Notes: generated by a model from the sequence alone, not told the origin. 64,000 bases of DNA from Dehalococcoidia bacterium (GCA_965262065.1 OZ253497.1:493637-557636); one strand, 5' to 3'. Shown: positions 25,238-46,919, counted from the first letter of the stretch. Program-made: numbers and translations.

Positions 25238-26395
25238 TTAAATCCCGCGGATCGATCCTCCCGCGGAGGTTGTTCGTTCCATCGGAGGATGCCGCGCTAT
25301 TTCGTCTTCGACAAATTCCAGGCCCAGTCCCGGCGCGTCGGATAACTTCACGTAGCCGTCCTCCTGGCGTGGGAAACCGGCCGTCACGTCGAAGTAGTGC
25401 GGATCGTAGAACTCTGCGTGGTACTCCTGGATGAGGAAGTTCCATACCGCCGCGTCGAGGTGCATCTCCGCCATCGCTCCCACCGGGGAGCAGACGTTGT
25501 GCGGCGCCATCGTTGCGTGCTCCGCCTCGGCGAGCGTGGCGATCTTCCTGAGCTCCGTGATGCCGCCCGCGTTGGCTATGTCCGGCTGCAGCACGTCGAC
25601 CGCCCTCGCCTTCAACAGCTGGTTGAACGGGAAAATCGTGTACAGCCGCTCGCCCGTGGCGATCGGGATATCGACGCGGTCTCTAACCTCCGCCATCTCG
25701 TGCACGTTCTCCGGCGAGACCGGTTCTTCATAGAAGAGCGGCCGGTACTCCTCCATCCGCTTGCCGAGTTGAATGGCAGTGACAACGTTGAACTTGGCAT
25801 GCGCCTCTACGAGGATGTCGACCTCCGGCCCGACCGCGTTGCTCACTGCGGCCACCCGGTCCTGCGCAAGTTGCGCCTCGCGCAGCGAGATGGTGTAGTA
25901 GTTTGTCTGGCCGAACGGGTCGAACTTGAGGGCCGTGTATCCCATGTCCACCACGACCTTCGCCTCGTCGGCGTTCTGCGCGGGCGTGCCGGGGTTCGTA
26001 TACCAGCCGTTGGCGTACACCCTGATTCGGGTGCGATGCGCGCCGCCGAGCAGCCGGTAGACCGGCTGGTCAAGGATCTTGCCCTTGAGGTCCCACAGCG
26101 CCATGTCGATCCCGGACAACGCGGTCGTCGCAATGCGTCCGCCGCGCGCTTGTTGGTCCATGTACAGCACGTTGTGCAGCACGCCGGAGTCGAGCGGGTC
26201 TTTTCCCACGAGGTAACGCGCCGTCAGTTCTTCGACGAACGACATCACCTCGGCGTCGTTCTGCATGGGGCTGGCGTCCCCGAGGCCGCTGAGCCCGGGC
26301 TGATCGGTGTTCAGCTTGACCATCAGCCAATTGCGGCTCGCGTTGTGGTGCCTCGCCGAGAATCGCCTGAACTCTACGCCCGTTATCGCTGGCAT
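25238..26395 (-). CDS. enolase-superfamily dehydratase (mandelate racemase/muconate lactonizing family), paralogue 1
   Basis: Start at 'MPAITGVEF' (ATG 26393-26395, AAGGA upstream). Motifs: 'ALWDLKGK', 'LKFDPFG', 'VEAHAKF', 'FYEEP', 'IATGERL', 'VLQPD'. The tracked extension to 26824 overlaps the next gene and looks non-coding. Confidence 0.88.
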   Translation of the reverse strand: MPAITGVEFRRFSARHHNASRNWLMVKLNTDQPGLSGLGDASPMQNDAEVMSFVEELTARYLVGKDPLDSGVLHNVLYMDQQARGGRIATTALSGIDMALWDLKGKILDQPVYRLLGGAHRTRIRVYANGWYTNPGTPAQNADEAKVVVDMGYTALKFDPFGQTNYYTISLREAQLAQDRVAAVSNAVGPEVDILVEAHAKFNVVTAIQLGKRMEEYRPLFYEEPVSPENVHEMAEVRDRVDIPIATGERLYTIFPFNQLLKARAVDVLQPDIANAGGITELRKIATLAEAEHATMAPHNVCSPVGAMAEMHLDAAVWNFLIQEYHAEFYDPHYFDVTAGFPRQEDGYVKLSDAPGLGLEFVEDEIARHPPMERTTSAGGSIRGI

Positions 26396-26638
26396 CGTGT
26401 TTCCTTGCCAACCCGCTGTATTCACGGGCCCGTTGTCGTCCGCACCCCTGCCGATGAAAGGGAACCCACGATCCCGCCGCCGTCGGCTAGTCGTCGCAGT
26501 GTAACGGCCCTGACAAAATCGCGGCGGCGCCAGCCGTTCCAGTGGATGTACCGCGGGCCGCTTTAACGGCCTCCAACGCCGGGCGCGCCCACCCTTTGCG
26601 TACAATCCAGCCAGAACCGGCGCCGGAGAAGGAGAAAC

Positions 26639-27748
26639 ATGTCCAGGCCGATCATCATCATCTGCATAGACGGGTTCGACCCCGATTATCTCGAGGCGGC
26701 CGAAATGCCCAACCTGCGGGAAATCGGCCGCAAGGGCTTCATGACCACGGGCCGGTCGATGATGCCGTCGGTGACCAACGTGAACAACGTCTCGATCGTC
26801 ACCGCCAGCTATCCCGCCGAGCACGGAATATGCTCGAACTACCGATGGGACAGGGAGACGGGCGAAGGGTTCTACATGGAGTCGGCCGAGAACATCCGCT
26901 CCCGGACGATGTTCCGGCGCGCCGGTGAACTTGGAATGACGTCGATCGTGGTCACCGCCAAAGACAAGCTTCGTACGCTCGTGGGCGTCGACGCCACGAC
27001 ACCGGTCTCCTCCGAGCGGGCGCCCGATTGGATCACCGCCGCCGTAGGCGACCCGCCGGAGGTCTACTCCCTGGAGGTGAACGGGTGGGTGATTGACGTC
27101 GGCAACTTCCTAATGAAGCAGCGGCCGGTGGATATCGCCTATCTCACGACCACGGACTTTGCGATGCACATGAACCCGCCCGACCATCCGGAGGCCCTCC
27201 GCCACATGGCCATCCTCGACGACGCCATAGGCCGCATCGCCGCCGACCACCCAGACGCGACGATCCTAATCACGGCCGACCATGGGATGAACCAAAAAAC
27301 CGAAATGGTCGATCTCAAGGCCATTCTTTCTGGGCGGGGCATCCAGTCCAACCCCGTCGCGATCATCAAGGACCGCTATGTCTTGCACCACTCGAACCTC
27401 GGTGGGTGCATGTACATCTACCTCGATCCGGCGAACGTCCGCGAGGCCATCGAAATCCTCCGCGACACGCCCGGAGTCGACGGCGCGATGACGAGAGAGG
27501 CGGCAGCGGAACGATTCGATCTCAGGCCGGACGCTATCGGCGATATCGTGGTGACGGCCTCTCGGTCTGTCGTTTTCGGGGACGCGGCAGAGGTCTCCAT
27601 TCCCGATGGCCTGCGGTCCCACGGCTCCGTGCACGAGCGCGACATACCGATCGTCGGGTACAAAGGCGATTTCGACGGCTTCGAGTTTCGTGAGAACCGC
27701 GACGTAGGCCGATACGTGTTCGAACGCGTGCTCGGGCGATCCGATTGA
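26639..27748 (+). CDS. alkaline-phosphatase-superfamily hydrolase, phosphonoacetate hydrolase (PhnA)-like
   Basis: 'IIICIDGFDPDYL', 'MPSVTNVNNVSIVTASYPAEHGI', 'VTAKDKLRTL', 'TTDFAMH', 'ITADHGMNQKT', 'LRSHGS'. These resemble PhnA as I remember it. Confidence 0.6.
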   Translation: MSRPIIIICIDGFDPDYLEAAEMPNLREIGRKGFMTTGRSMMPSVTNVNNVSIVTASYPAEHGICSNYRWDRETGEGFYMESAENIRSRTMFRRAGELGMTSIVVTAKDKLRTLVGVDATTPVSSERAPDWITAAVGDPPEVYSLEVNGWVIDVGNFLMKQRPVDIAYLTTTDFAMHMNPPDHPEALRHMAILDDAIGRIAADHPDATILITADHGMNQKTEMVDLKAILSGRGIQSNPVAIIKDRYVLHHSNLGGCMYIYLDPANVREAIEILRDTPGVDGAMTREAAAERFDLRPDAIGDIVVTASRSVVFGDAAEVSIPDGLRSHGSVHERDIPIVGYKGDFDGFEFRENRDVGRYVFERVLGRSD

Positions 27749-28911: not shown

Positions 28912-30054
28912 TTACTGGTCTATGACCGATCCGTCGGCGTGCAGCCTCGTATTGATCTCGCGGGGCGTGAAGGGAACCTTCTCTCGCGCGTCGGGCTTTA
29001 GCTCGACACCGATTCCCGGCTCGTCGGAGATAATCAGGTAGCCGTTGCCATCGTGCACCGGCGTGCCGGTGACCATGTCGCTCTTCGGCGGCACGTCCTC
29101 GCCCGTCGGGTACTCCTGCAGTGAGAAGTTCGGCACGGAGGCGGCAATCTGCAAGCAGGCCGCAGTGCTGACCGGACTGAGCGGGTTGTGCGGCACGACG
29201 CCCACGTGTCTGGCCTCTGCGGCTGCGGCGATCTTCTTCGTTGCAGAGATGCCGCCCACGATGCACACGTCAGGCCGGACGTACTGGACCGCGTTCCTGC
29301 TGAGCGCCATCTCGAAGTCCCAGAGCGAGGTGAACCGCTCACCGGTGGCTATGGGGATGTTTATCTTGTCGGCCACGTACGCCATCTCATCGATGTTGTC
29401 CGGCGTCACGGGGTCTTCGTAGAAATAGGGGTGGAACTTCTCGATGCCCAGGCCGAGCTGGACCGCTTCGGTGGGCGTGAGCCTCCGGTGTATCTCGATG
29501 CACAGATCGACGTCGCGGCCTACCGCCGCACGGTAGTCGGCCACTGTGTCGATGGCGTCTTCGATCTTCGCCACGTGGGTCTTGAAGTACGGCAGGTCGT
29601 GCGATTCGTCCAGGAACGGCGTCAGGTGCCCCACGGCAGTGAAACCCAATTCCTTTGCGGCCTTGACGCCGTTGACGAGCTTCTCGCGGGTGTTTCCGAA
29701 CACGTGGTAGTAGACACGCGCCTTGTCCCTGACCTTGCCGCCGAGCAATTGATGCACGGGGACGTCGAAGTGCTTGCCGGCTATATCCCAGAGCGCGATG
29801 TCGATCGCGCTGATAGCGCCCATAATGGCCGAGCCGCGGAAGTGGGATGAGCGGTACATGAACTGCCAGTGGTGCTCGATCCGGAGAGGGTCCTTCCCCA
29901 TGAGGTAGCGGCCGTATTTTTCGATTGCGACGGCAGACGATTCGAGGTAGCCCCACGCGCCCGACTCACCCAGGCCGGTAATGCCTGCGTCCGTCTCGAT
30001 CTCTACCAGCAGGTACCTGTCCAGAAAGATCGGTTCAACTTTAGTTATCTTCAA
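28912..30054 (-). CDS. enolase-superfamily dehydratase, D-galactonate dehydratase (DgoD)-like, paralogue 2
   Basis: TTG start with AGGAGAG upstream. Motifs: 'MKITKVEP..LLVEIETDAGITGLGES', 'ALWDIAGK', 'IEIHRRL', 'FYEDP', 'IATGERF', 'YVRPD'. Confidence 0.88.
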   Translation of the reverse strand: MKITKVEPIFLDRYLLVEIETDAGITGLGESGAWGYLESSAVAIEKYGRYLMGKDPLRIEHHWQFMYRSSHFRGSAIMGAISAIDIALWDIAGKHFDVPVHQLLGGKVRDKARVYYHVFGNTREKLVNGVKAAKELGFTAVGHLTPFLDESHDLPYFKTHVAKIEDAIDTVADYRAAVGRDVDLCIEIHRRLTPTEAVQLGLGIEKFHPYFYEDPVTPDNIDEMAYVADKINIPIATGERFTSLWDFEMALSRNAVQYVRPDVCIVGGISATKKIAAAAEARHVGVVPHNPLSPVSTAACLQIAASVPNFSLQEYPTGEDVPPKSDMVTGTPVHDGNGYLIISDEPGIGVELKPDAREKVPFTPREINTRLHADGSVIDQ

Positions 30055-31704: not shown

Positions 31705-31977
31705 ACTCGAACCCGCCTTGCGGGCCGTCGAAGTCCCGCGCCGGTCTTGTGGGGGAAACAGGGAGCAACACGTTGGTTGACCGACGCAGTCCTGAAAGAT
31801 CGAACTGCGTCGGCGATTCTCTTTGCTCCGCAGACCCGGCGTGGAATACTACTACCCCGCGGAGCGCCCGCCTCGCCAATTGCCGAGATATTCGGGCCCG
31901 GGACCAACTATCGACTAGAGGACGGCCGAACGCGTAGAGTCGGCCACGCATATCGCCGCGAATTCGGAGGAAAAAAG

Positions 31978-33108
31978 ATGAACGGACCAGACATATACGA
32001 CCGGCTCGGCGTCACAAAGGTGATCAACGCCCGCAGCTGGGTAACCGCCCTCGGCGGATCGATCATGCGGCCGGAAGTATTTGCGGCCATGGAAGAGGCG
32101 GGGCGGCACTTCGTCGACATGGACGAGTTGATGGCTGCCGGCGGCAAGGTCGTGGCGCGGGCGTGCGGCGCTGAGGCGGGCATGGTCTGCGCCGGAGCGG
32201 CGGCCGGAAACCTGCTCATGGCGGCCGCCGCCATCACCGGGACCGACAGGTCCAAGGTCGACCGCCTCCCCGATACGACCGGCATGAAGAACGAAATCGT
32301 CATCTTCAAGTCGCAACGAAATTCATACGACCGGACGTTCGAGACCGCGGGCGGCAAGCTCGTGGAGATAGGCATGCCGAAGACGGTGACGGCATACCAG
32401 CTTGAAGCCGCCATCGGAGACGCGACGGCAGGAGTGGTCTACACGCTTGCGCCGTTCCTTCCGCGCCCGCTCTCCCTCGAAGAGACCATAGAGATCGCCC
32501 ACGCATGTGGCGCGCCCGTCCTGGTCGACGCCTCGGCGGAGGTGCCGCCGGCCGACAATCTGACAAAACCGATGAGAGCCGGCGCCGACATGGTGACCTA
32601 CTCAGGCGGCAAGGGCATCTGCGGCCCGCAAAACTCCGGTCTGCTGGCCGGCCGGGCAGATTTGATTGAAGCGGCGTTCATGAACTACCTGCCCGCAGGC
32701 GCGCCGCGCGCCGGCATCGCGCGCCCGGCGAAGGTGTCCAAGGAGACCATCGTCGGCCTGGTCACGGCGATCGAGCTGTTCCTCGACTCCGATCACGAGT
32801 CGGTGTGGGCAGGCTGGCGGCAGAAGTGCGAGCACGTCGTCGAAAAGGTCAGAGGAATCCCCGGCCTGCGGGTGGTGATAGAGGACAACGAGAACCGGCA
32901 GGGGCCGCAGCCGGTGATTTACCTCGAACCCGAGTGGAGCGGTCCGCCCGCGGACGAAATACGCAGGCGTCTCGCCGAGGGCAACCCACCGATAATGATC
33001 GGCTCAGGCGGTTACGGGGACGAGCTGAACGTGGTGATGGTCAACGTGCGGCCTGGCGAAGAGAAGATCATCGCCGATCGCCTGCACGCAATCCTCACCT
33101 CCGAGTGA
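31978..33108 (+). CDS. SelA-fold PLP-dependent enzyme (DgaE-like), copy 1
   Basis: ATG 31978 preceded by GGAGG. Motifs: 'VINARSWVTALGGSIMRPEV' and PLP-Lys context 'YSGGKGICGPQNSGLLAG'. At 376 aa it lacks the N-terminal extension of true SelA. Confidence 0.75.
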   Translation: MNGPDIYDRLGVTKVINARSWVTALGGSIMRPEVFAAMEEAGRHFVDMDELMAAGGKVVARACGAEAGMVCAGAAAGNLLMAAAAITGTDRSKVDRLPDTTGMKNEIVIFKSQRNSYDRTFETAGGKLVEIGMPKTVTAYQLEAAIGDATAGVVYTLAPFLPRPLSLEETIEIAHACGAPVLVDASAEVPPADNLTKPMRAGADMVTYSGGKGICGPQNSGLLAGRADLIEAAFMNYLPAGAPRAGIARPAKVSKETIVGLVTAIELFLDSDHESVWAGWRQKCEHVVEKVRGIPGLRVVIEDNENRQGPQPVIYLEPEWSGPPADEIRRRLAEGNPPIMIGSGGYGDELNVVMVNVRPGEEKIIADRLHAILTSE

Positions 33109-33124
33109 CCGGGACGCGATCGCG

Positions 33125-34270
33125 ATGCCGATGCCGCTCCGAACCCCCGAACCGTACGCCAGGCTGGGCGTAAAGCCGGTCATCAACGCCCAAAGCTGGG
33201 TGACGGCGCTCGGCGGCAGCCTCATGCGGCCCGAAGTATTGAGCGCCATGAACGAGGCGGCGGCGTGCTTCGTCGACATGGTCGAACTCAACCGGGCGGC
33301 GGGCAAGGTAGTGGCGCGGGCATGCGGGGCCGAATCGGGCATGGTCACCGCGGGAGCGTCGGCGGCCGGGACCATCGCCGTCGCGGCCTGTATGACCGGC
33401 GTCGATCGAGCAAGGGCGGAGCACCTGCCCGACCCGACGGGAATGAAGAACGAGGTGGTCGTCTTCTGGGGAGAGCGCAACCGCTACGACATGTCGTTCG
33501 AGTTGCCGGGGGCGCGGATCGTCGAATGGGGCGTGCCGGGCGCCGGGGCGGCCTACCAGCTCGACGCTGCGATCACCGAACGCACCTGCGCCGTCGCGGC
33601 CGTATTCCAGCCGCTGTTGAAACGCGGCCTGCCGGTGAGCGAAATGTGCGAGGTCGCCCACGCCCGCAACGTGCCGGTGATCGTGGACGCCGCCGCCGAG
33701 GTCCCGCCGCTGGCCAACCTCACGCGCTTTATTCAGGATGGCGCCGACCTGGCGTTCTTTTCCGGCGGCAAGGGCATCGGGGGGCCGCAGAACGCCGGCC
33801 TGCTAGCCGGCAGCAGCGACCTGATGGAGGCTGCGTACGTCAACGCGCTCAACCTTGACGCGCCGCGGGCTGGAGTGGCTCGGGGGATGAAGGCGTCCAA
33901 GGAGTCGATCGTGGGAATGGTCACGGCGCTCGAACTCCTGGTCGAAACGGGGGAGGACGCCCTGTACGGAGGATGGATGGCCAAGGCGCGGCATATTCAC
34001 GGCCGCCTGGAGCACGTCGAAGGGCTGCGAGTCGTCATCGAAGAGACGGGGCCCGACCGTCACGGGCCGCAGCCGGTGGTCTACTTCGAACCTGGGTGGC
34101 GCGGGCCCTCGCCAGCCGAGATCCGCCAACGCCTGCTCGACGGCGACCCGCCAATACACGTCGGCATGGGCCACTACGCCGATGAGATCAACCTCGTCAT
34201 GGTGTGCCTCCAAGACGGCGAAGAAGAGATCGTCGCCGAGCGGTTGTTGGAGATTCTCGACACGGCCTAA
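33125..34270 (+). CDS. SelA-fold PLP-dependent enzyme (DgaE-like), copy 2
   Basis: 'VINAQSWVTALGGSLMRPEV', 'FSGGKGIGGPQNAGLLAG'. It is a clear paralogue of the upstream gene. Confidence 0.75.
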   Translation: MPMPLRTPEPYARLGVKPVINAQSWVTALGGSLMRPEVLSAMNEAAACFVDMVELNRAAGKVVARACGAESGMVTAGASAAGTIAVAACMTGVDRARAEHLPDPTGMKNEVVVFWGERNRYDMSFELPGARIVEWGVPGAGAAYQLDAAITERTCAVAAVFQPLLKRGLPVSEMCEVAHARNVPVIVDAAAEVPPLANLTRFIQDGADLAFFSGGKGIGGPQNAGLLAGSSDLMEAAYVNALNLDAPRAGVARGMKASKESIVGMVTALELLVETGEDALYGGWMAKARHIHGRLEHVEGLRVVIEETGPDRHGPQPVVYFEPGWRGPSPAEIRQRLLDGDPPIHVGMGHYADEINLVMVCLQDGEEEIVAERLLEILDTA

Positions 34271-34299
34271 GCTCGGGTTCGTGCGGTCGACCCGCTGCC

Positions 34300-34380
34300 C
34301 TAATCTCCCCGCGGGGGTAAGACGCCGGCCTTGTGGAAATCCCGTTCGTCTTCGACTGTCCTGAGGGACCGGGGCGCGTG
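34300..34380 (-). pseudogene. orphan copy of the 3' end of the enolase gene at 35869..37050 (direct-repeat copy A)
   Basis: 70/81 nt are identical by hand alignment to 35869-35949. It encodes HAPRSLRTVEDERDFHKAGVLPPRGD* versus HAPRPLRTVEDERNFHKAGVSPPRGD* at the true gene end. Confidence 0.75.
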
Positions 34381-34547
34381 AAACTGCCACAAGGTCGCTT
34401 GTACATGTGCCATACGGCGCAGGCGCTGAATAAAGCTCGGGCACCGTCCAGCATCGGGTACTTTATATTGAGTTCGGCGACTATCCTTCGCGGGTGGCCC
34501 GAAAGAGGACGCAGGGCAACGCGCGAACATCAAGACCCCTCTAAATC

Positions 34548-35570
34548 ATGGCGCTCGAAATACATCAGTTGGAACCAGAGCAAATTGACCAGGCAGGAAG
34601 AGTCCTGGTGCACGAGACGGATATCGACAAATGGTCGCAATCCGCCCGCGTGATCAATACGTGGCGTGCCTCTCACGCCGGTCCGCTGAATACATTTAGG
34701 ATGAATCTTCGCAGGCGAGTCCGAGGTCGCGACTTCGTCGCGCAGCGCCTCAAGCGTTTGCCCTCGATCGTTTCGAAAGTGGAAAGACTACCGCGGATCC
34801 GTTTGTCGCAAATGCAAGACATTGGCGGTTGCCGTGCCGTGTTACGCACATCGGACCATGCATATGACCTGGCCCTGGATTTCGCATCCAGCAGGATCCG
34901 GCACAAGCTGATTCGGTACAAGGACTATATTGAGAATCCGAGGCGATCAGGTTACCGCAGTCTGCACATGGTGTATGCCTACGACAGTGATCGATCCATG
35001 CAATGGAATGGCCTAAACATCGAAATTCAAATCCGTTCCCTTCTCCAACACCAATGGGCGACAGCCGTCGAAACTGTCGGCACGTTTACGCGGAACGACC
35101 TCAAGTCAAACCACGGCAATGCGATCTGGCTACGCTTCTTCGCGCTTATGAGTACTGTGATCGCACAGACTGAAGGAATGCCCGGCATCCCCAACACTCC
35201 AACAAGCCGAAGCAAACTCCTGCGCGAGATCAGGGAATGCGACCAACTACTTGGAATCTCTGAACAATTGGCTGCGTTTCAAGACCTTACGCCCATGCTC
35301 CCGGGTCTTTCGACGAGAAACAAGTGGATCGGTCTGGAACTGGACCTGGCGAACCAAACGGTGATTGGGTCCGTCTTTAATCCAGGGGACCTGGAGGCTG
35401 CAACCAACTGGTATGTGGAGAGGGAAGTTGAGAGCCGGGGGGATTCGCAAGTAGAGGTAGTTTTGGTCTCAACTGCATCGTTGTCAGCGCTCAGAAGGGC
35501 CTATCCGAACTACCTCGCGGACTTGGGCGATTTCAGGCGCCTGGTTCAGGAGACGATTGCGATTCCATGA
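34548..35570 (+). CDS. RelA/SpoT-domain protein (small alarmone synthetase / toxSAS-like nucleotide pyrophosphokinase) with ~140-aa C-terminal domain
   Basis: 'RLKRLPSIVSKVER', 'MQDIGGCRAVL', 'ENPRRSGYRSLHMVYAY', 'IEIQIRSLLQHQWATAVE'. This is the synthetase-domain motif set. There is no HD hydrolase domain. Confidence 0.8.
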   Translation: MALEIHQLEPEQIDQAGRVLVHETDIDKWSQSARVINTWRASHAGPLNTFRMNLRRRVRGRDFVAQRLKRLPSIVSKVERLPRIRLSQMQDIGGCRAVLRTSDHAYDLALDFASSRIRHKLIRYKDYIENPRRSGYRSLHMVYAYDSDRSMQWNGLNIEIQIRSLLQHQWATAVETVGTFTRNDLKSNHGNAIWLRFFALMSTVIAQTEGMPGIPNTPTSRSKLLREIRECDQLLGISEQLAAFQDLTPMLPGLSTRNKWIGLELDLANQTVIGSVFNPGDLEAATNWYVEREVESRGDSQVEVVLVSTASLSALRRAYPNYLADLGDFRRLVQETIAIP

Positions 35571-35703
35571 CGGCCATTTCGCGGAACCGCTTCTCCCGTC
35601 TCACGATGGCTCTGCGATCGCGGGCAAGGACTCTTTGCATAACCCGTTCGAATCTCTGGGCCGGCGTTTCGACCGGTCGAGCGTTCTTCCTCTTGCCAGC
35701 CAT
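35533..35703 (-). CDS. possible 56-aa basic helical protein, convergent with and overlapping the RelA/SpoT gene end
   Basis: Hand translation (below the track cut-off): MAGKRKNARPVETPAQRFERVMQRVLARDRRAIVRREKRFREMAVMESQSSPEPGA*. ATG at 35701-35703, TGA at 35533-35535. No clear RBS was seen. Confidence 0.25.
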   Translation of the reverse strand: MAGKRKNARPVETPAQRFERVMQRVLARDRRAIVRREKRFREMAVMESQSSPEPGA

Positions 35704-35868
35704 AATTTATGTCCCCTGAGCCGACACGGCCCACTGTAATCGAATCACTACACACTGGACAATTGTCGCATATGCCTCAGGTGGTCAAGCAAGAGTAGAA
35801 AGGCAGCCGCCAGCCCGATAGACGCGGCATGAATGTCGCAATGGAACTTGATCCGGCTACTCGCGGCC

Positions 35869-37050
35869 CTAGTCCCCGCGCGGGGGTGAGACGCCTGCTT
35901 TGTGGAAGTTTCGTTCGTCTTCGACGGTCCTGAGGGGCCGGGGCGCGTGTCGGTCGTATGTGTACTCTTTCAGAGCCGCCTCGTTGATTTCGATGCCGAT
36001 CCCCGGCTCGGTGGGCAACTCGACGTAGCCCTGGTCCGGCACGAGCGGCTTCACCATCAGCTTGTTGCACACGTCCTGCAGGCCGTGGGGGTACTCGTAC
36101 ATCAGGAAGTTCGGTATGACGGCGGACGCCTGCACGCCGGCCGCGAACGAGATCGCCGCGCTATTGGCGCCGTGGGGCGAAATGCCCATGTCGTACGCCT
36201 CGGCCATGGCGGCGATCTGCACGATCTCCAGTATCCCGCCCGTGTTCGAGATGTCTGGGTTGAGGTAGTCGGCCGCACGGCGCTCGAATACCTCGACGAA
36301 GCCGCGCCGCCCGTAGATCGCCTCGCCGATCGTTACCGGAATGTTGAGGGCGTTCTTGACCTCGGCGATGCCCCGGATGTTCTCCGGCGGACACGGCTCC
36401 TCGAACCAGTAGGGCCGGTACTTCTCGATCATGCGGCCGACCATGATCGCCTCGATGGGCGATAGACGCCGGTGGACCTCGATGAGTATCTCGACGCGCG
36501 GTCCGACCGCCTCTCGCACCGCTCCGACCTTGGCGGCCGCCAGTTCAAGGTCGGCGTGATCCACGAACGAACGCCACGGCCCGGGGAACGGGTCGAACTT
36601 CAGGGCGTCGTACCCCAGTTTCACTGACTTCAGCGCGCTGTTTGCGCACTCCTCCGGCGTGTCGCCCGCCGCTCCGCCGCCGTAGACCCTGAGCGCCGGG
36701 CGAACGGCGCCTCCCAGCAGGTTGTAGACCGGCTGGTCGAGGGCCTTGCCGGTGATGTCCCACATGGCGATCTCCAACCCGCTCACTGCGCTGTAGACGT
36801 CCATGGAGCCGCGCTTGAGAAACATGTCCTCGTAGGCCCAGTGACGGAAGTGGCCGATCTGCATCGGATCGCGGCCGATGAGGTAACGCTTCATCTCGTC
36901 GATATGCGCCGTGATCGCCGTGTCACGGTCGAGTTGCGTGTACGCCTCGCCCCAGCCGACGATTCCGTTGTCGGTGGTTATCTTGACGAACACCCAGTTC
37001 TTGGTCTGTGGCGGATGCACTATGAAGGTTTCGATGTCCTGGATTTTCAC
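35869..37050 (-). CDS. enolase-superfamily dehydratase, paralogue 3
   Basis: GTG 37048-37050 is preceded by AGGAG (7-nt spacer) and gives 'VKIQDIETFIVHPP'. Motifs: 'AMWDITGK', 'IEVHRRL', 'WFEEP', 'VTIGEAI', 'YLNPD'. The track ORF extends to 37224; ATG 37122 is an alternative start. Confidence 0.88.
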   Translation of the reverse strand: MKIQDIETFIVHPPQTKNWVFVKITTDNGIVGWGEAYTQLDRDTAITAHIDEMKRYLIGRDPMQIGHFRHWAYEDMFLKRGSMDVYSAVSGLEIAMWDITGKALDQPVYNLLGGAVRPALRVYGGGAAGDTPEECANSALKSVKLGYDALKFDPFPGPWRSFVDHADLELAAAKVGAVREAVGPRVEILIEVHRRLSPIEAIMVGRMIEKYRPYWFEEPCPPENIRGIAEVKNALNIPVTIGEAIYGRRGFVEVFERRAADYLNPDISNTGGILEIVQIAAMAEAYDMGISPHGANSAAISFAAGVQASAVIPNFLMYEYPHGLQDVCNKLMVKPLVPDQGYVELPTEPGIGIEINEAALKEYTYDRHAPRPLRTVEDERNFHKAGVSPPRGD

Positions 37051-37239: not shown

Positions 37240-38190
37240 ATGATCTACCGGACCCTTGGCCGAACCGGCCAGAAAGTATCGCTCCTAAGCTACGGCACGG
37301 GCGGGCCGAGCGGGTTTGGCGCGCGCACCGGCGTCGACCGTTCGGGCCGTCGCCGCCTGATCCGCCGGGCGCTGGATATCGGCGTGAATCTCATCGACAC
37401 CGCAGAGGGTTACGGGAACTCCGAGGAATGGCTGGGCGATGCCTTACAGGGCACGACCCGCGATTCGTACCTCATCGCCACCAAGTGGAGTCCTCCGTGC
37501 ACGTTTCGCGTTAACGACGAAAAAAAGTTCACAGGGCTGGCCGATTCGTTCGAACGCAGTCTCAAGCGGTTGCGCACCGGCTATATCGACATCATGCAGT
37601 TCCACGGGGTGACCATGGCTACGTACAGCGCCGTCGTGGACCGCTATTACCCGATTCTGAAGGCGCTGCAGGAACAGGGAAAGCTCCGGTTTATCGGCGC
37701 GACGTTCCAGTTGAAGGCCGAGCCGCGGCACGAGACCGCAGTCCTCGCCCTGCGCAACGATCCCGGGCTCTGGGACACGATCATGCTCAAGTACGGCTTC
37801 CTGAACCAATGGGCGGCCAAAGAGGTGTTCCCGCTGGCCATCGAACACGGAGTGGGCATACTCAACATGGCGGCCGTGCGGCTGTCGCTGTCCCGTCCGC
37901 AACGCTCACGCGAGGTCGTCGCACGGTGGAAGGAAGAGGGCTTGATCGCGCCCGACGATTTGCCGGACGATGGACCTTTCGACTGGCTATTGGGCGAGGA
38001 CGTGGACTCGGTCATCTCCGCCGGCTACAAGTTCGGCGCGGACCACGCGGCTGTTTCGACAGTGATCACGGGCACATCGAGCATCGAGCATCTCGAGGCC
38101 AACGCAAGATCGCTCGAAAAACCCGCGCTGCCGAGCCATAACCACGAGCGTCTTGTCCGGCTGTTCGAGGATTCCGCCGAGCCGGATTGA
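37240..38190 (+). CDS. aldo/keto reductase
   Basis: 'MIYRTLGRTGQKVSLLSYGTG', 'IDTAEGYGNSEEWLG', 'IDIMQFH'. Confidence 0.88.
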   Translation: MIYRTLGRTGQKVSLLSYGTGGPSGFGARTGVDRSGRRRLIRRALDIGVNLIDTAEGYGNSEEWLGDALQGTTRDSYLIATKWSPPCTFRVNDEKKFTGLADSFERSLKRLRTGYIDIMQFHGVTMATYSAVVDRYYPILKALQEQGKLRFIGATFQLKAEPRHETAVLALRNDPGLWDTIMLKYGFLNQWAAKEVFPLAIEHGVGILNMAAVRLSLSRPQRSREVVARWKEEGLIAPDDLPDDGPFDWLLGEDVDSVISAGYKFGADHAAVSTVITGTSSIEHLEANARSLEKPALPSHNHERLVRLFEDSAEPD

Positions 38191-38800: not shown

Positions 38801-38887
38801 TGGACTCGGTCATCTCCGCCGTTTCAAGTTCGGCGCGGACCACCCGGCGATTGCCACGGTGATCAAAACAGACGAGACGATCAACTA
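38801..38887 (+). pseudogene. frameshifted fragment duplicating part of the AKR gene 3' region
   Basis: 38801-38866 aligns to 38003-38069 (tggactcggtcatctccgcc.. and ttcggcgcggaccac identical) with a 1-nt deletion. It reads ..KFGADHPAIATVIKTDETIN* versus ..KFGADHAAVSTVITGTSS.. in the intact gene. Confidence 0.65.
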
Positions 38888-38910
38888 GGTATGGCGAGTG
38901 TCGTCCACCG

Positions 38911-39777
38911 CTAGGCTATGTGGCTCATGGCCTGGTCTACGATGTCCATGCCGGCACGCTCCGACCAGGCCGCCAGGATCTGTTTCGTAATCGGCCCGGG
39001 CGGGTCGTTCCGCAGCGGGCTGTCGTTGATCTTGCCGACCGGCAGCGCGCAGTAGCTCGTGGTCGTCAGAAACGCATCGTACGGCGTGAGGGGCTCTTCG
39101 GCGGTCGGAATATCGAGGTCGTCGGCCAGTTCGAGCACGGTCATGCGACTGACACCCGCAAGCACGTTGCGCGCCGGGGCGGTGCGGACCACTCCATTGG
39201 TGACCACGAAGAAGTTGCCGCCAGTGTTCTCGGAGAGGTTCCCGTCGACATCGAGGAGCACGGCGTAGGCCTCCGGGTCGACCAGCTTCGCCTCGATTTC
39301 GGCCATCACCAGGTTCATGCGGCTAATCGTCTTGAGCCTGGCGTCGAGGGCCTGTACAGGGTCTCTGCGAGTGGTCGGAATTACAACGTGCGCGCCCTCG
39401 TCGTAGAATCTGGCGTACGAAGTGAAAGGTATCGGCCTCATCCTGATCACAACCGTCGCCTGTTCCGGCTCCAGCACCGAATAGACCGCGCCGCGCTAGA
39501 TCATCTGCGTTACGGAATAGTCGCCGTTCGGCGCCCGCATCCGGTCGTTGCGGCGGGCCAGCTCTTCCGTGACTTCCTGCATCTCGTCGATCGACATGCC
39601 GGGATCGATGCGGACCATGTGAAGGGTCCTGTACAGCCGCTCCAGGTGTTCCCTCAGGCGGAATACCTTGCCACCGAACGTGCGCTCCGTGTCCATGCCT
39701 GCAACGCGATAGCAACGGAAAACTGCGGTACTCGTGGGTAGTTGACCTGAATTCGGCCGAAACCGGATAGGCAACAA
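38911..39777 (-). pseudogene. class IV (fold type IV) aminotransferase pseudogene, paralogue of 42069..42980
   Basis: Track ORFs 38911..39477 and 39496..39777 are colinear with the intact copy but are split by an in-frame TAG ('TQMI*' versus 'TQMISRGSG'). The fragment lacks the first ~38 codons and the 'YNADE' block ('PYDAFLTTT' versus 'PYDAYNADEAFLTTT'). Confidence 0.85.
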
Positions 39778-39792: not shown

Positions 39793-41400
39793 CTAACTCG
39801 GCGTGTATGTGTCCGGGGGAGTTAGATCATGAAATATGGAATACTGCGAAATAAGGACGTCTTCTCCGCTGACGGTGCCCCACACCAAGAGTGTGTAGAC
39901 CCCCTTGCCGTGCTCGCCCAGCACGTCCCATAAGTCGGCAGCGATAGAGAATTCTGTGCCCCTGGCCGTCCACTCCAGCGCGGTGTTCCACGGGACCTCG
40001 ATTGTCCGCGGCTCCAGCCCCAGGTGCTCAGATTGAACCCACTCCCAAAGCAGGCGGGCCTCGTCGTATGAGGAAGGGTGTTCAGCGTCCGCGGGAACGT
40101 CGTAGGGATTGAGGGATGGGGTGTACGTATAGGTAAATTGGTGGTCTTTGTAAAATTGATTCGCCGTGCGGATCGGCGGTCTCAGCGCAACCACCAAAAG
40201 CCCATTGTCGTAGGAGTAGGCTCTCGCGACCTGTCCCGCGGTAAGCCTGTGCGGCGGCGGATCGAAAGTGAGCAGCACACCGAGGTCGAGTTCGTCGACA
40301 AAAACCGCGCCGTTCTTCGTCGACCCAGACATACTAAGAACACCTCTGTTAATGACCGGTAGTTGAGCGTATTCAACGTAGTCGCCCTCGAAGTGCTGGA
40401 CAACTTGGAGGGAGTAGTCGTCCCATGCAAGTCCGATGTTGACCCGCTTGCGCCACGGATCCAGGATGTTGTCCCGGTGGCCCGGGCTTCCCATCAACCT
40501 CTCCATCGCCAGACTTATTTCCGGCTCGACGCTACCAATTACACGAAATCCTTCCGAAGCTTTGACGCAATAGGGAAGGCCGCTTAGGTTCTCCCCATTG
40601 GACTGAAAGCCCCCGGCAAGGCTGTATCTCATGTAGGGTTTCAGGCCGTCCATGCCCCAATGAGACCCGAAGCAATTCTCCACCTCCGCCTCAGCGTGCA
40701 GTTGAGCGGCTACGTTGTCGCCGAGAACAACGGGGTCCAGACCAACTTTCACACGCTCGTCATTGATGAGTTCGAGCATGTATAGCTTTTCCTCGATGTG
40801 ACGTAGTGGGGGTGGGGGAGCGGGCGAAGGCGTTGATACCACCGATGGCAACAGGGGGGCGAGCGTTGGAGGAGGCGTCGATACAGGAGCAAGCGTGGGC
40901 AAAGGGGCCAGTGTCGGCGGAGGCGTCGGCACAGGAGCAAGCGTGGGCAGAGGCGCCAGTGTCGGAGGAGGCGTCGGCAAAGGAACAAGCGTGGGCAGAG
41001 GCACAAGTGTCGGCGGCGGCGTCGATACAGCAGTCGGCACGGGCAGGGGGGCGAGAGTTGGGGGAGGCGTCGGCACAGCAGTCGGCGCGGGCAGGGGCGC
41101 CAGTGTCGGACGAGGGGTTGGCAGGGCAGCCAGCGTGGGCAGGGGCGCCAGTGTCGGAGGAGGCGTCGGCAGGGCAGCCAGCGTGGGCAGGGGCGCCAGT
41201 GTCGGAGGAGGCGTCGGCAGAGCAGCCAGCGTGGGCAAGGGCGCCAGCGTCGGCGGCTCAGCTTCCCGCGATGACTCTTCTACACGCAACAGGTCAGATA
41301 TGCGTCGAGGTAGCACGTCCTCAACATAGGCATAGTAAGCCACGCTCACCAGGACACCGACGACAAAGCCGAGTACCAACCTCTTTGTGGCCCGACTCAT
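39793..41400 (-). CDS. membrane-anchored secreted protein: Pro-rich repeat stalk + CAP/SCP (PR-1-like) domain + unassigned C-terminal domain
   Basis: N-terminal TM 'LVLGFVVGVLVSVAYYAYV', about 9 x 16-aa 'PPTLAPLPTLAALPTP' repeats, then 'LELINDERVKVGLDPVVLGDNVAAQLHAEA..CFGSHWG..GENLSG', typical of CAP/YkwD-like domains. Confidence 0.75.
   Translation of the reverse strand: MSRATKRLVLGFVVGVLVSVAYYAYVEDVLPRRISDLLRVEESSREAEPPTLAPLPTLAALPTPPPTLAPLPTLAALPTPPPTLAPLPTLAALPTPRPTLAPLPAPTAVPTPPPTLAPLPVPTAVSTPPPTLVPLPTLVPLPTPPPTLAPLPTLAPVPTPPPTLAPLPTLAPVSTPPPTLAPLLPSVVSTPSPAPPPPLRHIEEKLYMLELINDERVKVGLDPVVLGDNVAAQLHAEAEVENCFGSHWGMDGLKPYMRYSLAGGFQSNGENLSGLPYCVKASEGFRVIGSVEPEISLAMERLMGSPGHRDNILDPWRKRVNIGLAWDDYSLQVVQHFEGDYVEYAQLPVINRGVLSMSGSTKNGAVFVDELDLGVLLTFDPPPHRLTAGQVARAYSYDNGLLVVALRPPIRTANQFYKDHQFTYTYTPSLNPYDVPADAEHPSSYDEARLLWEWVQSEHLGLEPRTIEVPWNTALEWTARGTEFSIAADLWDVLGEHGKGVYTLLVWGTVSGEDVLISQYSIFHDLTPPDTYTPS
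40825..41256 (-). repeat. 48-nt periodic coding tandem repeat (16-aa PPTLAPLPTLAALPTP x ~9)
   Basis: Residues 49-192 of the CAP-domain protein. The first three units are identical at protein level and later units diverge progressively. Confidence 0.9.
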
Positions 41401-41951: not shown

Positions 41952-42068
41952 GTGCCCCCTTGCGCCTAACGAGATAGCCGGGAATGTTTGTAGTCCAAAA
42001 CCGGCCTGATCAGATGGAAGTCGAGAGAGGCGAGGCGATAAACGCGAAATGACGTTTATCGTAGATCG

Positions 42069-42980
42069 CTAACTCACGTGGCTCATCGCCTGGTCTACGA
42101 TGTCCATGCCGGCACGCTCCGACCAAGCCGCCAAAATCTGCTTCGTTACCGGTCCGGGTGTGTCGGCCCGCAACGGGTTGCCATTGATCTTGCACACCGG
42201 CAACGCGCAGTAGCTCGTGGTCGTCAGAAACGCCTCGTCGGCGTTGTAGGCGTCATACGGTGTGAGGGTCTCCTCCGCCGTCGGAATATCGAGGTCCCGC
42301 GCCAGTTCCAGCACGGTTTGGCGGCTGATTCCGGCCAGAACGTTTCGCGCCGGGGCCGTCCGAATCACGCCGTCGGTCACCACGAAAAAGTTACCGCCGG
42401 TGTTCTCGGACAGGTTTCCATCGACATCCAGAAGCACAGCGTAGGCGGCCGGGTCGATCTGCTTCGCCTCGATCTCGGCCATCACCAGATTCATACGGCT
42501 TATCGTCTTCAGCCTGGCGTCAAGGGCCTGCGGAGGGTCTCTGCGCGTAGTTGGGAAGACGACGTGCGCGCCCGTGTCGTACAACTTGGCGTACGAAGCG
42601 AAAACGATCGGCGTCATCTTGACCACCACGGTCGCCCGCTCCGGCTCCAGCAAAGATGTCCCCGACCCGCGCGAGATCATCTGCGTTACCCAATAGTCGT
42701 CGTTCGGTTGGCGCATCCGGTCGTTGCGGCGCGCCAACTCCTCGGTGATCGACTGCAGTTCCTCTATCGATATGCCCGGATCGATGCGCACCATGTGAAG
42801 GGCCTTGTACAGCCGCTCCAGGTGTTCCCTCAACCGGAACACCTTGCCCGCGAATGTCCGCTCTGTGTCGAAAACCGCATCGCCGACCGAAAGGGCGCGG
42901 TCCAACACCGATATCTTCGCCTGAGAGGTCGGCACGAACTCGCCGTTCACGTATTGGATCAACTCTTGCATTGGAATCAC
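42069..42980 (-). CDS. class IV aminotransferase (branched-chain/D-amino-acid aminotransferase family), intact copy
   Basis: 303 aa. Motifs: 'ERTFAGKVFRLREHLERL', 'LKTISRMNLVMAE', 'ADEAFLTTT'. Confidence 0.85.
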   Translation of the reverse strand: MIPMQELIQYVNGEFVPTSQAKISVLDRALSVGDAVFDTERTFAGKVFRLREHLERLYKALHMVRIDPGISIEELQSITEELARRNDRMRQPNDDYWVTQMISRGSGTSLLEPERATVVVKMTPIVFASYAKLYDTGAHVVFPTTRRDPPQALDARLKTISRMNLVMAEIEAKQIDPAAYAVLLDVDGNLSENTGGNFFVVTDGVIRTAPARNVLAGISRQTVLELARDLDIPTAEETLTPYDAYNADEAFLTTTSYCALPVCKINGNPLRADTPGPVTKQILAAWSERAGMDIVDQAMSHVS

Positions 42981-44318: not shown

Positions 44319-45611
44319 TCACGGTCTTACAATGCTGCCATCGGCTCGCCGGACCTCGTTCCACGCTCCCCCGAACCCCCATTCGCTATGCGGAAACTTC
44401 GCAGCAAGTTCCTCGTCGATGTCGATGCCCAGGCCGGGCTTGCCGTTTGACCACATGTGGCCGTCCCTGACTTCGGGGCATCCCGGGAAGACCTCTTTCG
44501 TGCGTTCGCCGAAGATGGCGTATTCCTGCACACCGAAGTTCCAGCTATTCAGGTCCATCATCAGGTTTGCGGCGTGGCCGACTGGAGACGTGTCCCCCGG
44601 CCCGTGCCACGCCGTTCGCACCCCGAACATCTCCCCCATCGCAGCCAACTTGCGGCATGGCGTGATCCCGCCCATCTGCGAAACGTGGATCCGTATGAAG
44701 TCGATCAGCCGGTCCTTGACCATGGGAACCACCTCGTGCGGGTTGTTCCAAAGTTCGCCCATCGCCAGAGGTGTGGCGCACAGGCGACGGACCATCCGGA
44801 AGTAGTCCTGGTCCTCCGGCGAAAACAGGTCTTCGAGGAAAAACAGGCGGTACTGCTCGACCTCTTTGGCGAACCAAACGCCGTCGATCGCCGGGATGCG
44901 CTCGTGGACATCGTGCAGCATCTCGAAGTCCCAGCCGCACTGTGAACGAACGAGTTCGAACAGCCGCAGGGCGCTATTCATGTATGGCTTCGGCTCGAAT
45001 ATGCCGGGTGGGTGCGCGTACCGCTTGTCGGGCGAAAGTTCTTTGTTCCAGGTGGTTACCTGGCGGGGAGCGCCTCCGGCCACACCTGCGGTTTCGGCCT
45101 TTTTCTCCAGGCCCTTTGTGCCGTAAGTCGCGTATCCGGGCGTGTCGACCTGGACGCGGATGTGATGGAATCCCTGGTCCATGAAGGCGCTAACTTTGTC
45201 TGCCACCTCGGCCGGTTCTCGGCCGCTCGCGTGCACATAGACCGCGGCGGCCTCCCTCGCACGGCCTCCCAACAGGTCATACACCGGCATACCGGCCATT
45301 TTGCCCTTGATGTCCCACAGGGCCTGGTCCACCCCGCTCAGCGCGTTGTTGAGGACGCCGCCGTTGCGCCAGTACGAACTGACGTAACTCGATTGCCAGA
45401 TGTCCTCGATGTCCGCCACGTTCCACCCGATCAAAAACGGGCGCAGATAATTCTCCACCGCCACCTTGACCGGCAGCGGTCGCTGCGTGAAGGTGGCGCA
45501 TCCGACCCCGTAGAGGCCCGGCTCGCTTGTCTCCACCTTGACGATGACCAGACGTATGCCGTCCGGCTCGGTCAGGATGACTTTTATGTCTCTGATAGTG
45601 ACGTTGCTCAC
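44319..45611 (-). CDS. enolase-superfamily dehydratase, D-mannonate dehydratase (ManD) subgroup-like, paralogue 4
   Basis: 'IEDIWQSSYVSSYWRNGGVLNNALSGVDQALWDIKGK', 'HDVHERI', 'FLEDLF', 'LAMGELW', 'IRIHVS'. Confidence 0.88.
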   Translation of the reverse strand: MSNVTIRDIKVILTEPDGIRLVIVKVETSEPGLYGVGCATFTQRPLPVKVAVENYLRPFLIGWNVADIEDIWQSSYVSSYWRNGGVLNNALSGVDQALWDIKGKMAGMPVYDLLGGRAREAAAVYVHASGREPAEVADKVSAFMDQGFHHIRVQVDTPGYATYGTKGLEKKAETAGVAGGAPRQVTTWNKELSPDKRYAHPPGIFEPKPYMNSALRLFELVRSQCGWDFEMLHDVHERIPAIDGVWFAKEVEQYRLFFLEDLFSPEDQDYFRMVRRLCATPLAMGELWNNPHEVVPMVKDRLIDFIRIHVSQMGGITPCRKLAAMGEMFGVRTAWHGPGDTSPVGHAANLMMDLNSWNFGVQEYAIFGERTKEVFPGCPEVRDGHMWSNGKPGLGIDIDEELAAKFPHSEWGFGGAWNEVRRADGSIVRP

Positions 45612-45671: not shown

Positions 45672-46919
45672 TTATGGTCGGACAATCGCGCCGTCGGCCC
45701 GGCGAACGAGCTCCCTGAACATATCCCGTTCCGGTATCGGATATTTAGCCGCCAACTTCTCGTCGATGTCGATGCCGAGTCCGGGCTCGCCGTTGGGCCA
45801 CATGTGGCCATCCCGCACCTCGGGGCAACCGGGGAAGACCTCGCGGGTCCGTTCGGGAAACACAGCCCACTCGTGGACGCCGAAATTCCACGTGTTCAAC
45901 TCCAGCATCAGGTTGGCCGAGTGGCCGACCGGCGAAGTGCCGCCCGGCCCGTGCCACACTGTGCGCACGCCGAACATCTCGCTCAGCGCGGCGTACTTGC
46001 GGCACGGCGTCAGGCCGCCCACACGCGAGACGTGAATCCTAATGAAGTCGACGAGGCGGTCCTTGACCATCGGGATGATCTCGTGCGGGTTCGACCAAAG
46101 TTCCCCCATGGCTATAGGAGTCGTGCAGATCTGGCGCACCTGGCGGAAGTAGTCCTGGTCCTCGGGCGTGAACAGGTCTTCGAGGAAGAAGAGGCGGTAC
46201 TGCTCCACCTCTTTGGCGAGCCATACCCCGTCGATCGCAGGGATGCGTTCGTGGACGTCGTGCAGCATCTCGAAGTCCCAACCGACCTTGCTGCGAAGGT
46301 GATCGAACAGGCTGAGGGCCGAGTTCATGTAGGGCTTCGGTTCGAAGATGCCCCCGCGCCATGACGTCACGGCCCTTGGCCCGCCCATCGTTCCGGCGCG
46401 CCCATCCACCTCGCCGCCGCCGTGTGCGCCGTAGGTCTGGTAACCCGGCGTTTCGACCTGAACCCGCAGGTAGTGGAAACCCTGTTCGATATAGTCCCGG
46501 ACCTGGTCCTCGACGGCCTCGTTGTCCGGTCCGCTGGGGTGCACGTAGACGGCGGCGGCTTCCCTGGCGCGGCCGCCAAGCAGGTCGTACACCGGCATGT
46601 TGGCCAGCTTTCCCTTGATATCCCACAGTGCTTGATCGACACCGCTGAGAGCGTTTCCCAGTATCGTGCCGTTGCGCCAGTAAGAACTGACGTTGGCGGA
46701 TTGCCATATGTCTTCTATGTCGGAGACGCTGCGGCCAATGAGAAACGGACGCAGATAGTCATCCACCGCAGACTTGACCGTGAACGGTTGCCGGTCGTAC
46801 GTCGCGCAGCCGAGGCCGTACAGGCCGGGCTCCGTGGTTTCGACCTTGACGACTGCGAGGGCGTTGTTGTCCGGCTGGGTCAGGATCGTCCGGATGTCGC
46901 GGATTTTCGGGTCGCTCAA
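45672..46919 (-). CDS. enolase-superfamily dehydratase, ManD subgroup-like, paralogue 5 (tandem to paralogue 4)
   Basis: It has the same motif set as 44319..45611, for example 'FEMLHDVHERIPAIDGVWLAKEVEQYRLFFLEDLF'. It differs mainly in the loop after 'QVETPGY'. Confidence 0.88.
   Translation of the reverse strand: MSDPKIRDIRTILTQPDNNALAVVKVETTEPGLYGLGCATYDRQPFTVKSAVDDYLRPFLIGRSVSDIEDIWQSANVSSYWRNGTILGNALSGVDQALWDIKGKLANMPVYDLLGGRAREAAAVYVHPSGPDNEAVEDQVRDYIEQGFHYLRVQVETPGYQTYGAHGGGEVDGRAGTMGGPRAVTSWRGGIFEPKPYMNSALSLFDHLRSKVGWDFEMLHDVHERIPAIDGVWLAKEVEQYRLFFLEDLFTPEDQDYFRQVRQICTTPIAMGELWSNPHEIIPMVKDRLVDFIRIHVSRVGGLTPCRKYAALSEMFGVRTVWHGPGGTSPVGHSANLMLELNTWNFGVHEWAVFPERTREVFPGCPEVRDGHMWPNGEPGLGIDIDEKLAAKYPIPERDMFRELVRRADGAIVRP

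Follow-up and report, generated by a model that had tools for sequence, protein, structure and literature searches.

The sequence analyzed here, referred to as the window, is a 64,000-nucleotide (nt) stretch of DNA from a Dehalococcoidia bacterium (GCA_965262065.1 OZ253497.1:493637-557636), and the subject of this report is a gene junction near its center. Two genes converge on this junction: on the left, a DgaE-family-like enzyme dependent on pyridoxal phosphate (33125..34270, plus strand), and on the right, an MR_MLE gene of the enolase superfamily, galactonate-dehydratase-like (35869..37050, minus strand). Between them lie a gene predicted to encode a fused toxin-antitoxin protein of the CapRel family, 340 amino acids (aa) in length (34548..35570, plus strand), its upstream region (34381..34547, plus strand; delimited by alignments with related loci L001, L002 and L088), and a conserved, basic, convergent 56-aa open reading frame (ORF; 35533..35703, minus strand) that overlaps the last 38 nt of the CapRel gene. 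These genes are bracketed by a direct repeat of the MR_MLE 3' end. Copy B (35859..35949, minus strand) is the end of the intact gene, with which its reading frame is continuous, and copy A (34290..34380, minus strand) is a displaced relic of such an end, without a gene body. A 29-nt spacer (34271..34299) runs from the DgaE stop to the stop codon of the relic. A second spacer (35704..35858), between the 56-aa ORF and the MR_MLE end, is part of the CapRel cargo and is kept beside MR_MLE in all CapRel-type loci.

Relatives of the locus were drawn, through MR_MLE and DgaE orthologs, from European Nucleotide Archive assemblies and from Dehalococcoidia metagenome-assembled genomes (MAGs) of the Genome Taxonomy Database (GTDB); they are identified below by numbers with the prefix L. 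The left flanking gene matches Pfam Aminotran_5/SelA and NCBIfam TIGR01437 (DgaE family), the latter at 182 bits, under the cut-off, and is syntenic in all related loci. It is the second of two tandem DgaE-like paralogs (31975-33108 and 33125-34270) that are 65% identical. The right flanking gene, with a GTG start and 393 aa, matches Pfam MR_MLE_N and MR_MLE_C; its NCBIfam matches fall under the equivalog cut-offs. A preliminary description of this DNA had called it an enolase paralog; the matches place it in the enolase superfamily and not with enolase itself. Its orthologs are present at 88-98% identity in Dehalococcoidia MAGs. The conserved order is a UxuA-like gene, an MR_MLE paralog, an FAD oxidase, DgaE1, DgaE2, a variable spot, MR_MLE, an aldo/keto reductase (37240..38190, plus strand; assigned by Pfam and synteny), a second variable spot, a class IV aminotransferase and an AlkZ-like gene. 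MR_MLE and the reductase thus form a conserved block separating two variable spots.

A repeated gene end brackets low-GC DNA

A repeat search returned one two-copy family, an ungapped 91-nt direct repeat (34290-34380 and 35859-35949) with 78 of 91 positions identical (86%) and the copies spaced 1569 nt apart. When copy A was compared by BLAST with the whole window, copy B matched with an E value of 6e-26 and the next best match was 13 nt long (E 0.17); neither BLAST nor a self-comparison of the 64-kb window yielded a third copy. Outside the repeat the two copies have no similarity, on the outer and inner sides alike, and the longest unbroken identity between them is only about 14 nt. On the minus strand each copy consists of the last 26 codons of the MR_MLE gene, its stop codon and about 10 nt downstream, with translations HAPRSLRTVEDERDFHKAGVLPPRGD for copy A and HAPRPLRTVEDERNFHKAGVSPPRGD for copy B, each followed by the stop; a gene body (35869-37050) is attached to copy B only. 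The DNA between the copies comprises 1,478 nt with 54.9% G+C, compared to 64-68% for the flanking genes and 61.6% for the window.

Much of what the preliminary description had read from this region is borne out. Its 81-nt repeat (34300-34380 and 35869-35949, 70 of 81 identical) is real, with 11 differences in that core, although the repeat extends to 91 nt by running about 10 nt past the stop codon. The translations likewise bear out its statement that both copies encode the C-terminal 26 residues plus stop and that only copy B has a body, and the RelA/SpoT-domain gene that it placed between the copies has a Pfam RelA_SpoT match (E 6.5e-19). Its estimate of about 52% G+C for the insert was too low.

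The 11 nucleotide differences between copies A and B result in just 3 amino acid changes, compared to a random expectation of 7.4 (P = 0.0014). This excess of synonymous differences shows that the copies are alleles rather than products of an in-situ duplication, most of their divergence having arisen while each still ended a functional gene in a lineage of its own. The earlier idea that copy A is a displaced former gene end is thereby supported, with the addition that this end comes from a different lineage. Copy B differs from the allele of locus L014 at 2 of 63 positions. When the window, L001 and L007 are compared over the interval 35831-35930, copy B has 9-11 mismatches per 100 nt and its flanks have 2-4, and some of the variants match copy A; gene conversion between the two copies is possible.

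The CapRel-type gene and a convergent small ORF

The 340-aa protein matches the PADLOC model PDC-S33 over its full length (E 7.7e-105, covering residues 1-337), and its best solved relative is CapRel SJ46 (PDB 7ZTB/9ERV; E 8e-36). The alignment with 7ZTB spans residues 10-244, which places a toxSYNTH nucleotidyltransferase domain of the RelA/SpoT type at the N-terminus. An AlphaFold2 (AF2) model of the protein (predicted local distance difference test, pLDDT, 85) has 7ZTB as its top full-length fold match, with a template modeling (TM) score of 0.69 over 349 columns; its C-terminal part contains strands at 259-309 and terminal helices. Residues R67, R96, G135 and Y136 are invariant among 58 homologs. 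Y136 corresponds to the catalytic G-loop tyrosine Y155 of SJ46, and R67 and R96 to the ATP-coordinating arginines R79 and R116. Near the C-terminus, the YXXY motif Y319-P-N-Y322 aligns with AYPNY of SJ46, and Y319, P320 and N321 are invariant in the family alignment. By sequence and predicted fold the protein therefore combines a toxSYNTH domain and its catalytic residues with a fused C-terminal pseudo-zinc-finger domain and YXXY anchor. From these defining residues, the PADLOC match and the sequence and fold match to 7ZTB, we assign the predicted protein to the CapRel family of fused toxin-antitoxin (toxSAS) defense proteins.

In CapRel SJ46 the toxSYNTH domain at the N-terminus is held inactive by the C-terminal pseudo-zinc-finger; binding of a phage structural protein lifts this autoinhibition, whereupon the enzyme pyrophosphorylates the 3' ends of tRNAs and the infection is aborted (PMC9712102). 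By analogy, the window protein would work by the same mechanism and have anti-phage activity. An exact-sequence look-up of the window CapRel returned no record, and its relatives on viral contigs are at most 42% identical, none of them in a DgaE/MR_MLE context. Two blocks of the gene (34731-35030 and 35131-35330) are about 15% diverged between the window and L001/L007 amid near-identical blocks, a mosaic that suggests recombination or diversifying selection inside the gene.

The convergent 56-aa ORF is constant in length in 11 loci, and in most pairs its amino acid changes are far below the number expected from the nucleotide changes (P<0.001), which indicates purifying selection. In L011, with CapRel deleted, it carries a frameshift, yet it is intact in L009, where CapRel is likewise a remnant. 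Homologs are few (3 among 1.8 billion representatives), no match was found in Pfam, PADLOC or NCBIfam, and a single-sequence model predicts one long helix. The ORF was also compared with the YejK-like sensor of the PANGU toxSAS systems, to which it is unrelated. It may be a hitherto unrecognized partner of this CapRel clade; a small conserved ORF of this kind has not been described for CapRel and deserves to be flagged. No Rfam family, promoter consensus or terminator was detected in the island at 34381-35858.

Distribution of the relic and structure of the left junction

The gap between DgaE2 and MR_MLE holds CapRel and the 56-aa ORF in 10 loci: the window, L001, L002, L004, L005, L006, L007, L014, L088 and L089. 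Copy A stands beside DgaE in only three of them, the window, L001 and L007, in which it is 98.9% identical. A fourth contig bearing the relic can be deduced from P0254, a frameshifted read-through product that spells out spacer plus relic. In the three loci the DgaE stop is TAA and is followed by the unique 29-nt spacer, contiguous with the relic nowhere else, and then by the relic itself. The other seven CapRel loci (L002, L004, L005, L006, L014, L088 and L089) lack copy A beside DgaE; there the DgaE stop is TAG, followed by CapRel upstream sequence, and six of the seven share one junction (CGATTACGCC...), with L088 carrying about 350 nt of other sequence at that point. Three different left junctions are thus found among the CapRel loci. 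Since the stop codon and the spacer are unlike those of all other types, the relic and spacer resemble the meeting point of the convergent DgaE and MR_MLE genes in a version of the locus without cargo, of which the 29 nt would be the intergenic region.

The relic meets the CapRel upstream region in a non-homologous joint at 34380/34381. Homology to other CapRel versions starts near 34425-34440, and the sequence 34381-34445 is found, besides the window, only in L001 and L007. An abrupt non-homologous joint on one side is therefore paired with continuous homology on the other. Within DgaE the three relic-bearing loci are about 8-9% diverged, with 5-14 mismatches per 100 nt, whereas over the stretch that starts at the DgaE stop, includes the relic and ends 180 nt into CapRel they show 0-2 per 100. 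This near-identity across the joint, set against the divergence of DgaE, indicates that the junction spread recently as an allele by homologous exchange. Divergence along the locus as a whole forms a mosaic, which points to frequent homologous exchange. Because of this mosaic structure, an attempt to reconstruct donor and recipient from the divergence profiles gave no answer.

Variable content of the junction in related loci

CapRel is one of several kinds of cargo at this position. In L004 a McrBC system is added to CapRel. Remnants of CapRel are found in L009, L011 and L171/L172, the last two retaining only about the last 95 nt of the gene, and a disrupted CapRel in L173. L003 and L013 carry PDC-S42 with a methylase and a helicase resembling type III restriction-modification genes, and a PDC-S11-like gene occupies the gap in L010 and in L171/L172. 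Other contents are a GNAT gene in L008, glycine-reductase/ABC genes in L009 and, identified from translation only, an ORF similar to zinc alcohol dehydrogenases in L012. With constant flanks, variable content enriched in defense genes and no mobile-element markers, the junction has the properties of a core-gene-flanked defense hotspot, with the caveats that part of the content is metabolic and that L171 has an IS110 transposase at a neighboring spot. The earlier suggestion that the low-GC insert was horizontally acquired is supported in this form, as cargo of the hotspot. One apparent variant, P0004, was considered as an MR_MLE with a divergent C-terminus and rejected as a frameshifted assembly.

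The transposase of L171, an IS110-family gene at 6830-7648 directly downstream of the aldo/keto reductase, is the sole mobile-element gene seen in any locus. The second variable spot, past the reductase, holds large proteins with leucine-rich repeat (LRR), fibronectin-III or cadherin domains in L007, L089, L001 and L173. Poribacteria MAGs are among the distant matches, and together with this cargo they hint at a sponge-associated habitat.

Recurrence of gene-end relics

Displaced gene ends are not confined to the window and its two closest counterparts. In L004 the 3.5-kb McrBC insert lies between 141-nt repeats of the MR_MLE end that are 85.8% identical, and their 19 nucleotide differences produce 5 amino acid changes; the McrBC insert is missing from the sister strain L005, whose CapRel is identical. 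In L171/L172 the order is DgaE, the PDC-S11-like gene, a 79-nt MR_MLE relic, the CapRel end, the 56-aa ORF and MR_MLE. That relic ends at position -76 of the MR_MLE gene and is fused directly to codon ~309 of CapRel; a joint inside CapRel cannot be the product of recombination between two attachment (att) sites. By their inner ends, then, the MR_MLE relics are of three types: -81 in the window, L001 and L007, about -130 in L004, and -76 in L171/L172. Relics of the MR_MLE 3' end have at least three independent origins, which differ in partner and breakpoint. L009 also has, beside its CapRel remnant, a degenerate fragment from inside the MR_MLE gene.

Similar structures occur at the next two core genes. 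A relic of the internal 3' region of the aldo/keto reductase (38801..38865, plus strand) matches 38003-38068 at 86% identity and lies beyond about 610 nt of low-GC DNA, itself with short similarities to DNA around a Fic gene in L002. Longer reductase relics are found distal to LRR/cadherin cargo in L007 (11962-12096) and L089 (14273-14399) and distal to Fic in L172 (14065-14275), and in L001 a partial one is truncated where the contig stops. A GTGATCA sequence in the reductase gene is the breakpoint in both the L007/L089 and the window structures. Farther on, a disrupted but nearly full-length class IV aminotransferase relic (38870..39777, minus strand; Pfam Aminotran_4 on both pieces, and self-comparison) precedes the intact gene at 42069-42980; the copies align over 842 nt at 79.6% identity (42028-42980 on the side of the second copy). 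The allele closest to the relic is that of L089 (93.5% identity), whereas the intact copy is closest to that of L172 (96%). Between the two is a 535-aa proline-rich repeat protein (39793-41400) with internal repeats of about 96 nt (40823-41257).

In all, three types of MR_MLE relic, three of reductase relic and one aminotransferase relic were identified, with lengths from 66 to 842 nt. Relics and attached copies are 84-92% identical, as far apart as versions of the locus usually are, and three adjacent core-gene junctions within one 9-kb stretch carry allelic gene-end relics.

Origin of the repeat

We consider it probable, with some reserve, that the repeat is the scar of a recombination between two versions of the hotspot, one "empty" and one occupied by CapRel, which were joined through homology at one end and illegitimately at the other. 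The anatomy of the locus, the allelic nature of the copies, their recurrence and the lack of recombinase genes are established; the molecular route that follows is inferred, and either version may have been the donor. CapRel and the 56-aa ORF would be a two-gene resident cargo of the hotspot between the convergent DgaE-like and MR_MLE genes. DNA from a relative with another version of the hotspot would enter, cross over homologously on one side, and be joined illegitimately on the other, 81 nt inside the MR_MLE gene of the other version. The end of DgaE, the 29-nt spacer and the 81 nt from MR_MLE would stem from the empty version, and all else from a version with CapRel that was L088-like in the upstream region and L014-like in MR_MLE. 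The product would retain one intact MR_MLE allele, ending in copy B, and the 81 nt of copy A with the spacer would be left stranded beside DgaE. Selection would retain only those products in which the core gene is intact. Such a process would amount to homology-facilitated illegitimate recombination, or sequential displacement, and would need no integrase. Homology-facilitated illegitimate recombination is reportedly the subject of de Vries & Wackernagel 2002 and Prudhomme et al. 2002.

Several observations weigh against a scar of this kind. None of the collections searched, whether of genomes, metagenomes or encoding contigs, yielded a truly empty DgaE/MR_MLE site. In a scan of GTDB genomes with MR_MLE, orthologs were always accompanied by cargo and homologs at 64% identity or less lacked a DgaE neighbor; a scan of Joint Genome Institute (JGI) metagenomes with DgaE2 gave nothing usable toward an empty site, and look-ups of the closest DgaE alleles returned further occupied versions and no empty one. 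The preliminary description had called for a comparison with an empty site; relatives without CapRel do have a single copy of the gene end, but those sites hold other cargo. The parental pair for the joint at 34380/34381 is not among the sampled loci, and the joint in L172 shows a microhomology of only about 2 nt (GC). Some breakpoints nearly coincide, namely -81 with -76 in MR_MLE and those at the GTGATCA of the reductase gene; this is more than random joints predict, and a sequence-specific process or a hot spot of breakage could lie behind it. Downstream of the MR_MLE stop, the CapRel and the McrBC cargo are directly preceded by the same 12 nt. No related locus contains a relic derived from DgaE, an asymmetry that a scar of this kind does not predict.

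Some of these points would fit a site-specific integration like that at icd, in which a small element carried the MR_MLE 3' end as its att site, its recombinase was lost or acted in trans, and copy A is the pseudo-end on the attR side. The geometry resembles that of icd/icdC around e14 (PMC13626634), with direct repeats of a gene 3' end at both ends of low-GC cargo, and the nearly coincident breakpoints and the common 12-nt start of two different inserts would be natural for such an element. We nevertheless regard it as unlikely. As the preliminary description had noted, no integrase is present: Pfam scans of the locus genes and of 37 further large ORFs of the 64 kb detected no integrase, transposase or resolvase, and the window contains neither a tRNA nor a tmRNA gene. 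The interval 34381-35858 holds only CapRel and the 56-aa ORF, the McrBC insert of L004 contains no recombinase gene, and none was seen in the conserved neighborhood. Between the CapRel island and the McrBC insert no common sequence, backbone or arms could be recognized, and their junctions share no motif. Nor are the boundaries constant, given the seven CapRel loci without a repeat, the three left junctions, the varied ends and lengths of the relics, and an L172 relic fused inside CapRel rather than at an att partner; the runs of identity between copies A and B are short as well.

The preliminary description had pictured a circular mini-island integrated at the gene end. A homology-dependent event, one of the options it allowed, is still the likeliest, whereas the island does not behave as a discrete att-carrying unit: CapRel and its spacer occupy this exact junction in 10 loci, 7 of them without a displaced copy; relics of the same gene end flank other cargo (McrBC in L004, the PDC-S11-like gene in L171/L172) with differing inner breakpoints; and the same signature appears at two neighboring core genes, the reductase and the aminotransferase. 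In its Campbell form, a circle consisting of the last 81 nt of MR_MLE, the spacer, the small ORF, CapRel and 167 nt would have entered the 91-nt homology of an empty site by a single RecA-dependent crossover. This yields the exact structure with no integrase and accounts for the allelic divergence, but it requires an illegitimate circularization followed by recombination over only 91 nt at 86% identity, which is inefficient. It also predicts hybrid copies and the MR_MLE body of the recipient, whereas copy B is continuous with the L014-like allele, and it leaves the L172 relic abutting a truncated CapRel unexplained; we judge it quite unlikely. That copy A is what remains of a second, tandem MR_MLE gene, duplicated or imported at 34300-35868 and then deleted down to 81 nt, finds some encouragement in the nearly full-length aminotransferase relic and the internal MR_MLE fragment of L009, which show that longer relics exist and could be trimmed. 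It is made very improbable by the absence of two full MR_MLE copies at the junction in any of 18 related loci, and by the equal length of copy A in three genomes otherwise 8% diverged; moreover, a second copy would itself require recombination between versions. The sampled populations are highly polymorphic at this locus, which speaks for a misassembly of mixed strains, but the same junction occurs in at least 3 independent assemblies from different samples (including L001, and L007 on a 3.27-Mb contig), and the joint at 34380/34381 has no shared sequence or k-mers at which an assembler could switch paths or collapse a strain bubble. An artefact is accordingly the least credible explanation, and we hardly reckon with it.

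A broader proposal goes beyond the recombination scar favored here. Accessory and defense genes might be loaded systematically beside convergent core-gene 3' ends, by an integrase-free or trans-acting process with preferred breakpoints (-76/-81 in MR_MLE and GTGATCA in the reductase), the relics recording the order of acquisition, and the 56-aa ORF might separately be a partner of CapRel. We put this forward as a speculation that is unlikely to hold.

Other features of the window

Five paralogs of the MR_MLE family are present in the 64 kb (25238-26824, 28912-30054, 35869-37050, 44319-45611 and 45672-46919), including one tandem pair with 78% nucleotide identity. At the edge of the window, an ORF at 78-1466 contains the C-terminal part of an N6_N4 DNA methylase domain and is followed at 2319-3602 by a 427-aa ORF without a Pfam match; the two may belong to a further restriction-modification or defense locus. 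A 45-nt direct repeat (93% identity; 20731-20775 and 20823-20867) lies directly upstream of the TsaD gene.

Comparison with known systems

The defense gene is most similar to CapRel SJ46, its best full-length match in sequence and fold, with which it shares the catalytic tyrosine, the ATP-coordinating arginines and the YXXY motif. The two are about 28-29% identical, and whereas SJ46 is borne by a prophage, the window gene is chromosomal, lies in a core-gene-flanked hotspot and is accompanied by the convergent 56-aa ORF; its trigger and activity are predicted by homology. The finding extends CapRel-type immunity to Chloroflexota, and indicates that a phage-defense gene is kept and reshuffled in an uncultured Dehalococcoidia lineage with no mobile-element machinery visible at the locus.

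Among prophages, e14 encodes its own integrase and excises precisely. The icd/icdC arrangement produced in E. coli by e14 and phage 21 resembles the window in having a gene 3' end on the insert side and a diverged pseudo-3'-end on the far side, with differences that are largely synonymous. It differs from the present locus, in which there is no recombinase, the boundaries vary and most of the CapRel-bearing relatives lack the repeat.

A closer parallel to the proposed scar is offered by the loci of type VI secretion systems (T6SS), Rhs proteins and contact-dependent inhibition (CDI), for which sequential displacement has been proposed to account for orphaned immunity genes and 3' ends (Kirchberger et al. 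2017, PMC5361080). There, too, cargo is anchored by a conserved gene and the former 3' end persists as an orphan farther out, the copies are alleles of different strains, no integrase takes part and the loci are mosaic. Those loci exchange toxin C-termini with their immunity genes, whereas here the anchors are metabolic housekeeping genes, the cargo consists of defense and accessory genes, and the relics are non-functional.

Core-gene-flanked defense hotspots are already known. One of them is cDHS1 of P. aeruginosa, for which an exchange through homology in the flanks has been suggested (Johnson et al. 2023, PMC10250203). The DgaE/MR_MLE junction shares with cDHS1 the constant core flanks, the variable, defense-rich, low-GC content and the lack of obvious affiliation to mobile elements. 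It is much smaller (0.4-10 kb), its content is not only defense, and it retains scars, in contrast to the scar-free transfer envisaged for cDHS1. The relics at three adjacent junctions record which versions of the locus recombined, and roughly in what order, and such readable scars make the loading of hotspots addressable by population genomics of this lineage. Both the scar and the CapRel hotspot belong to kinds already known, and current understanding is not overturned by them.

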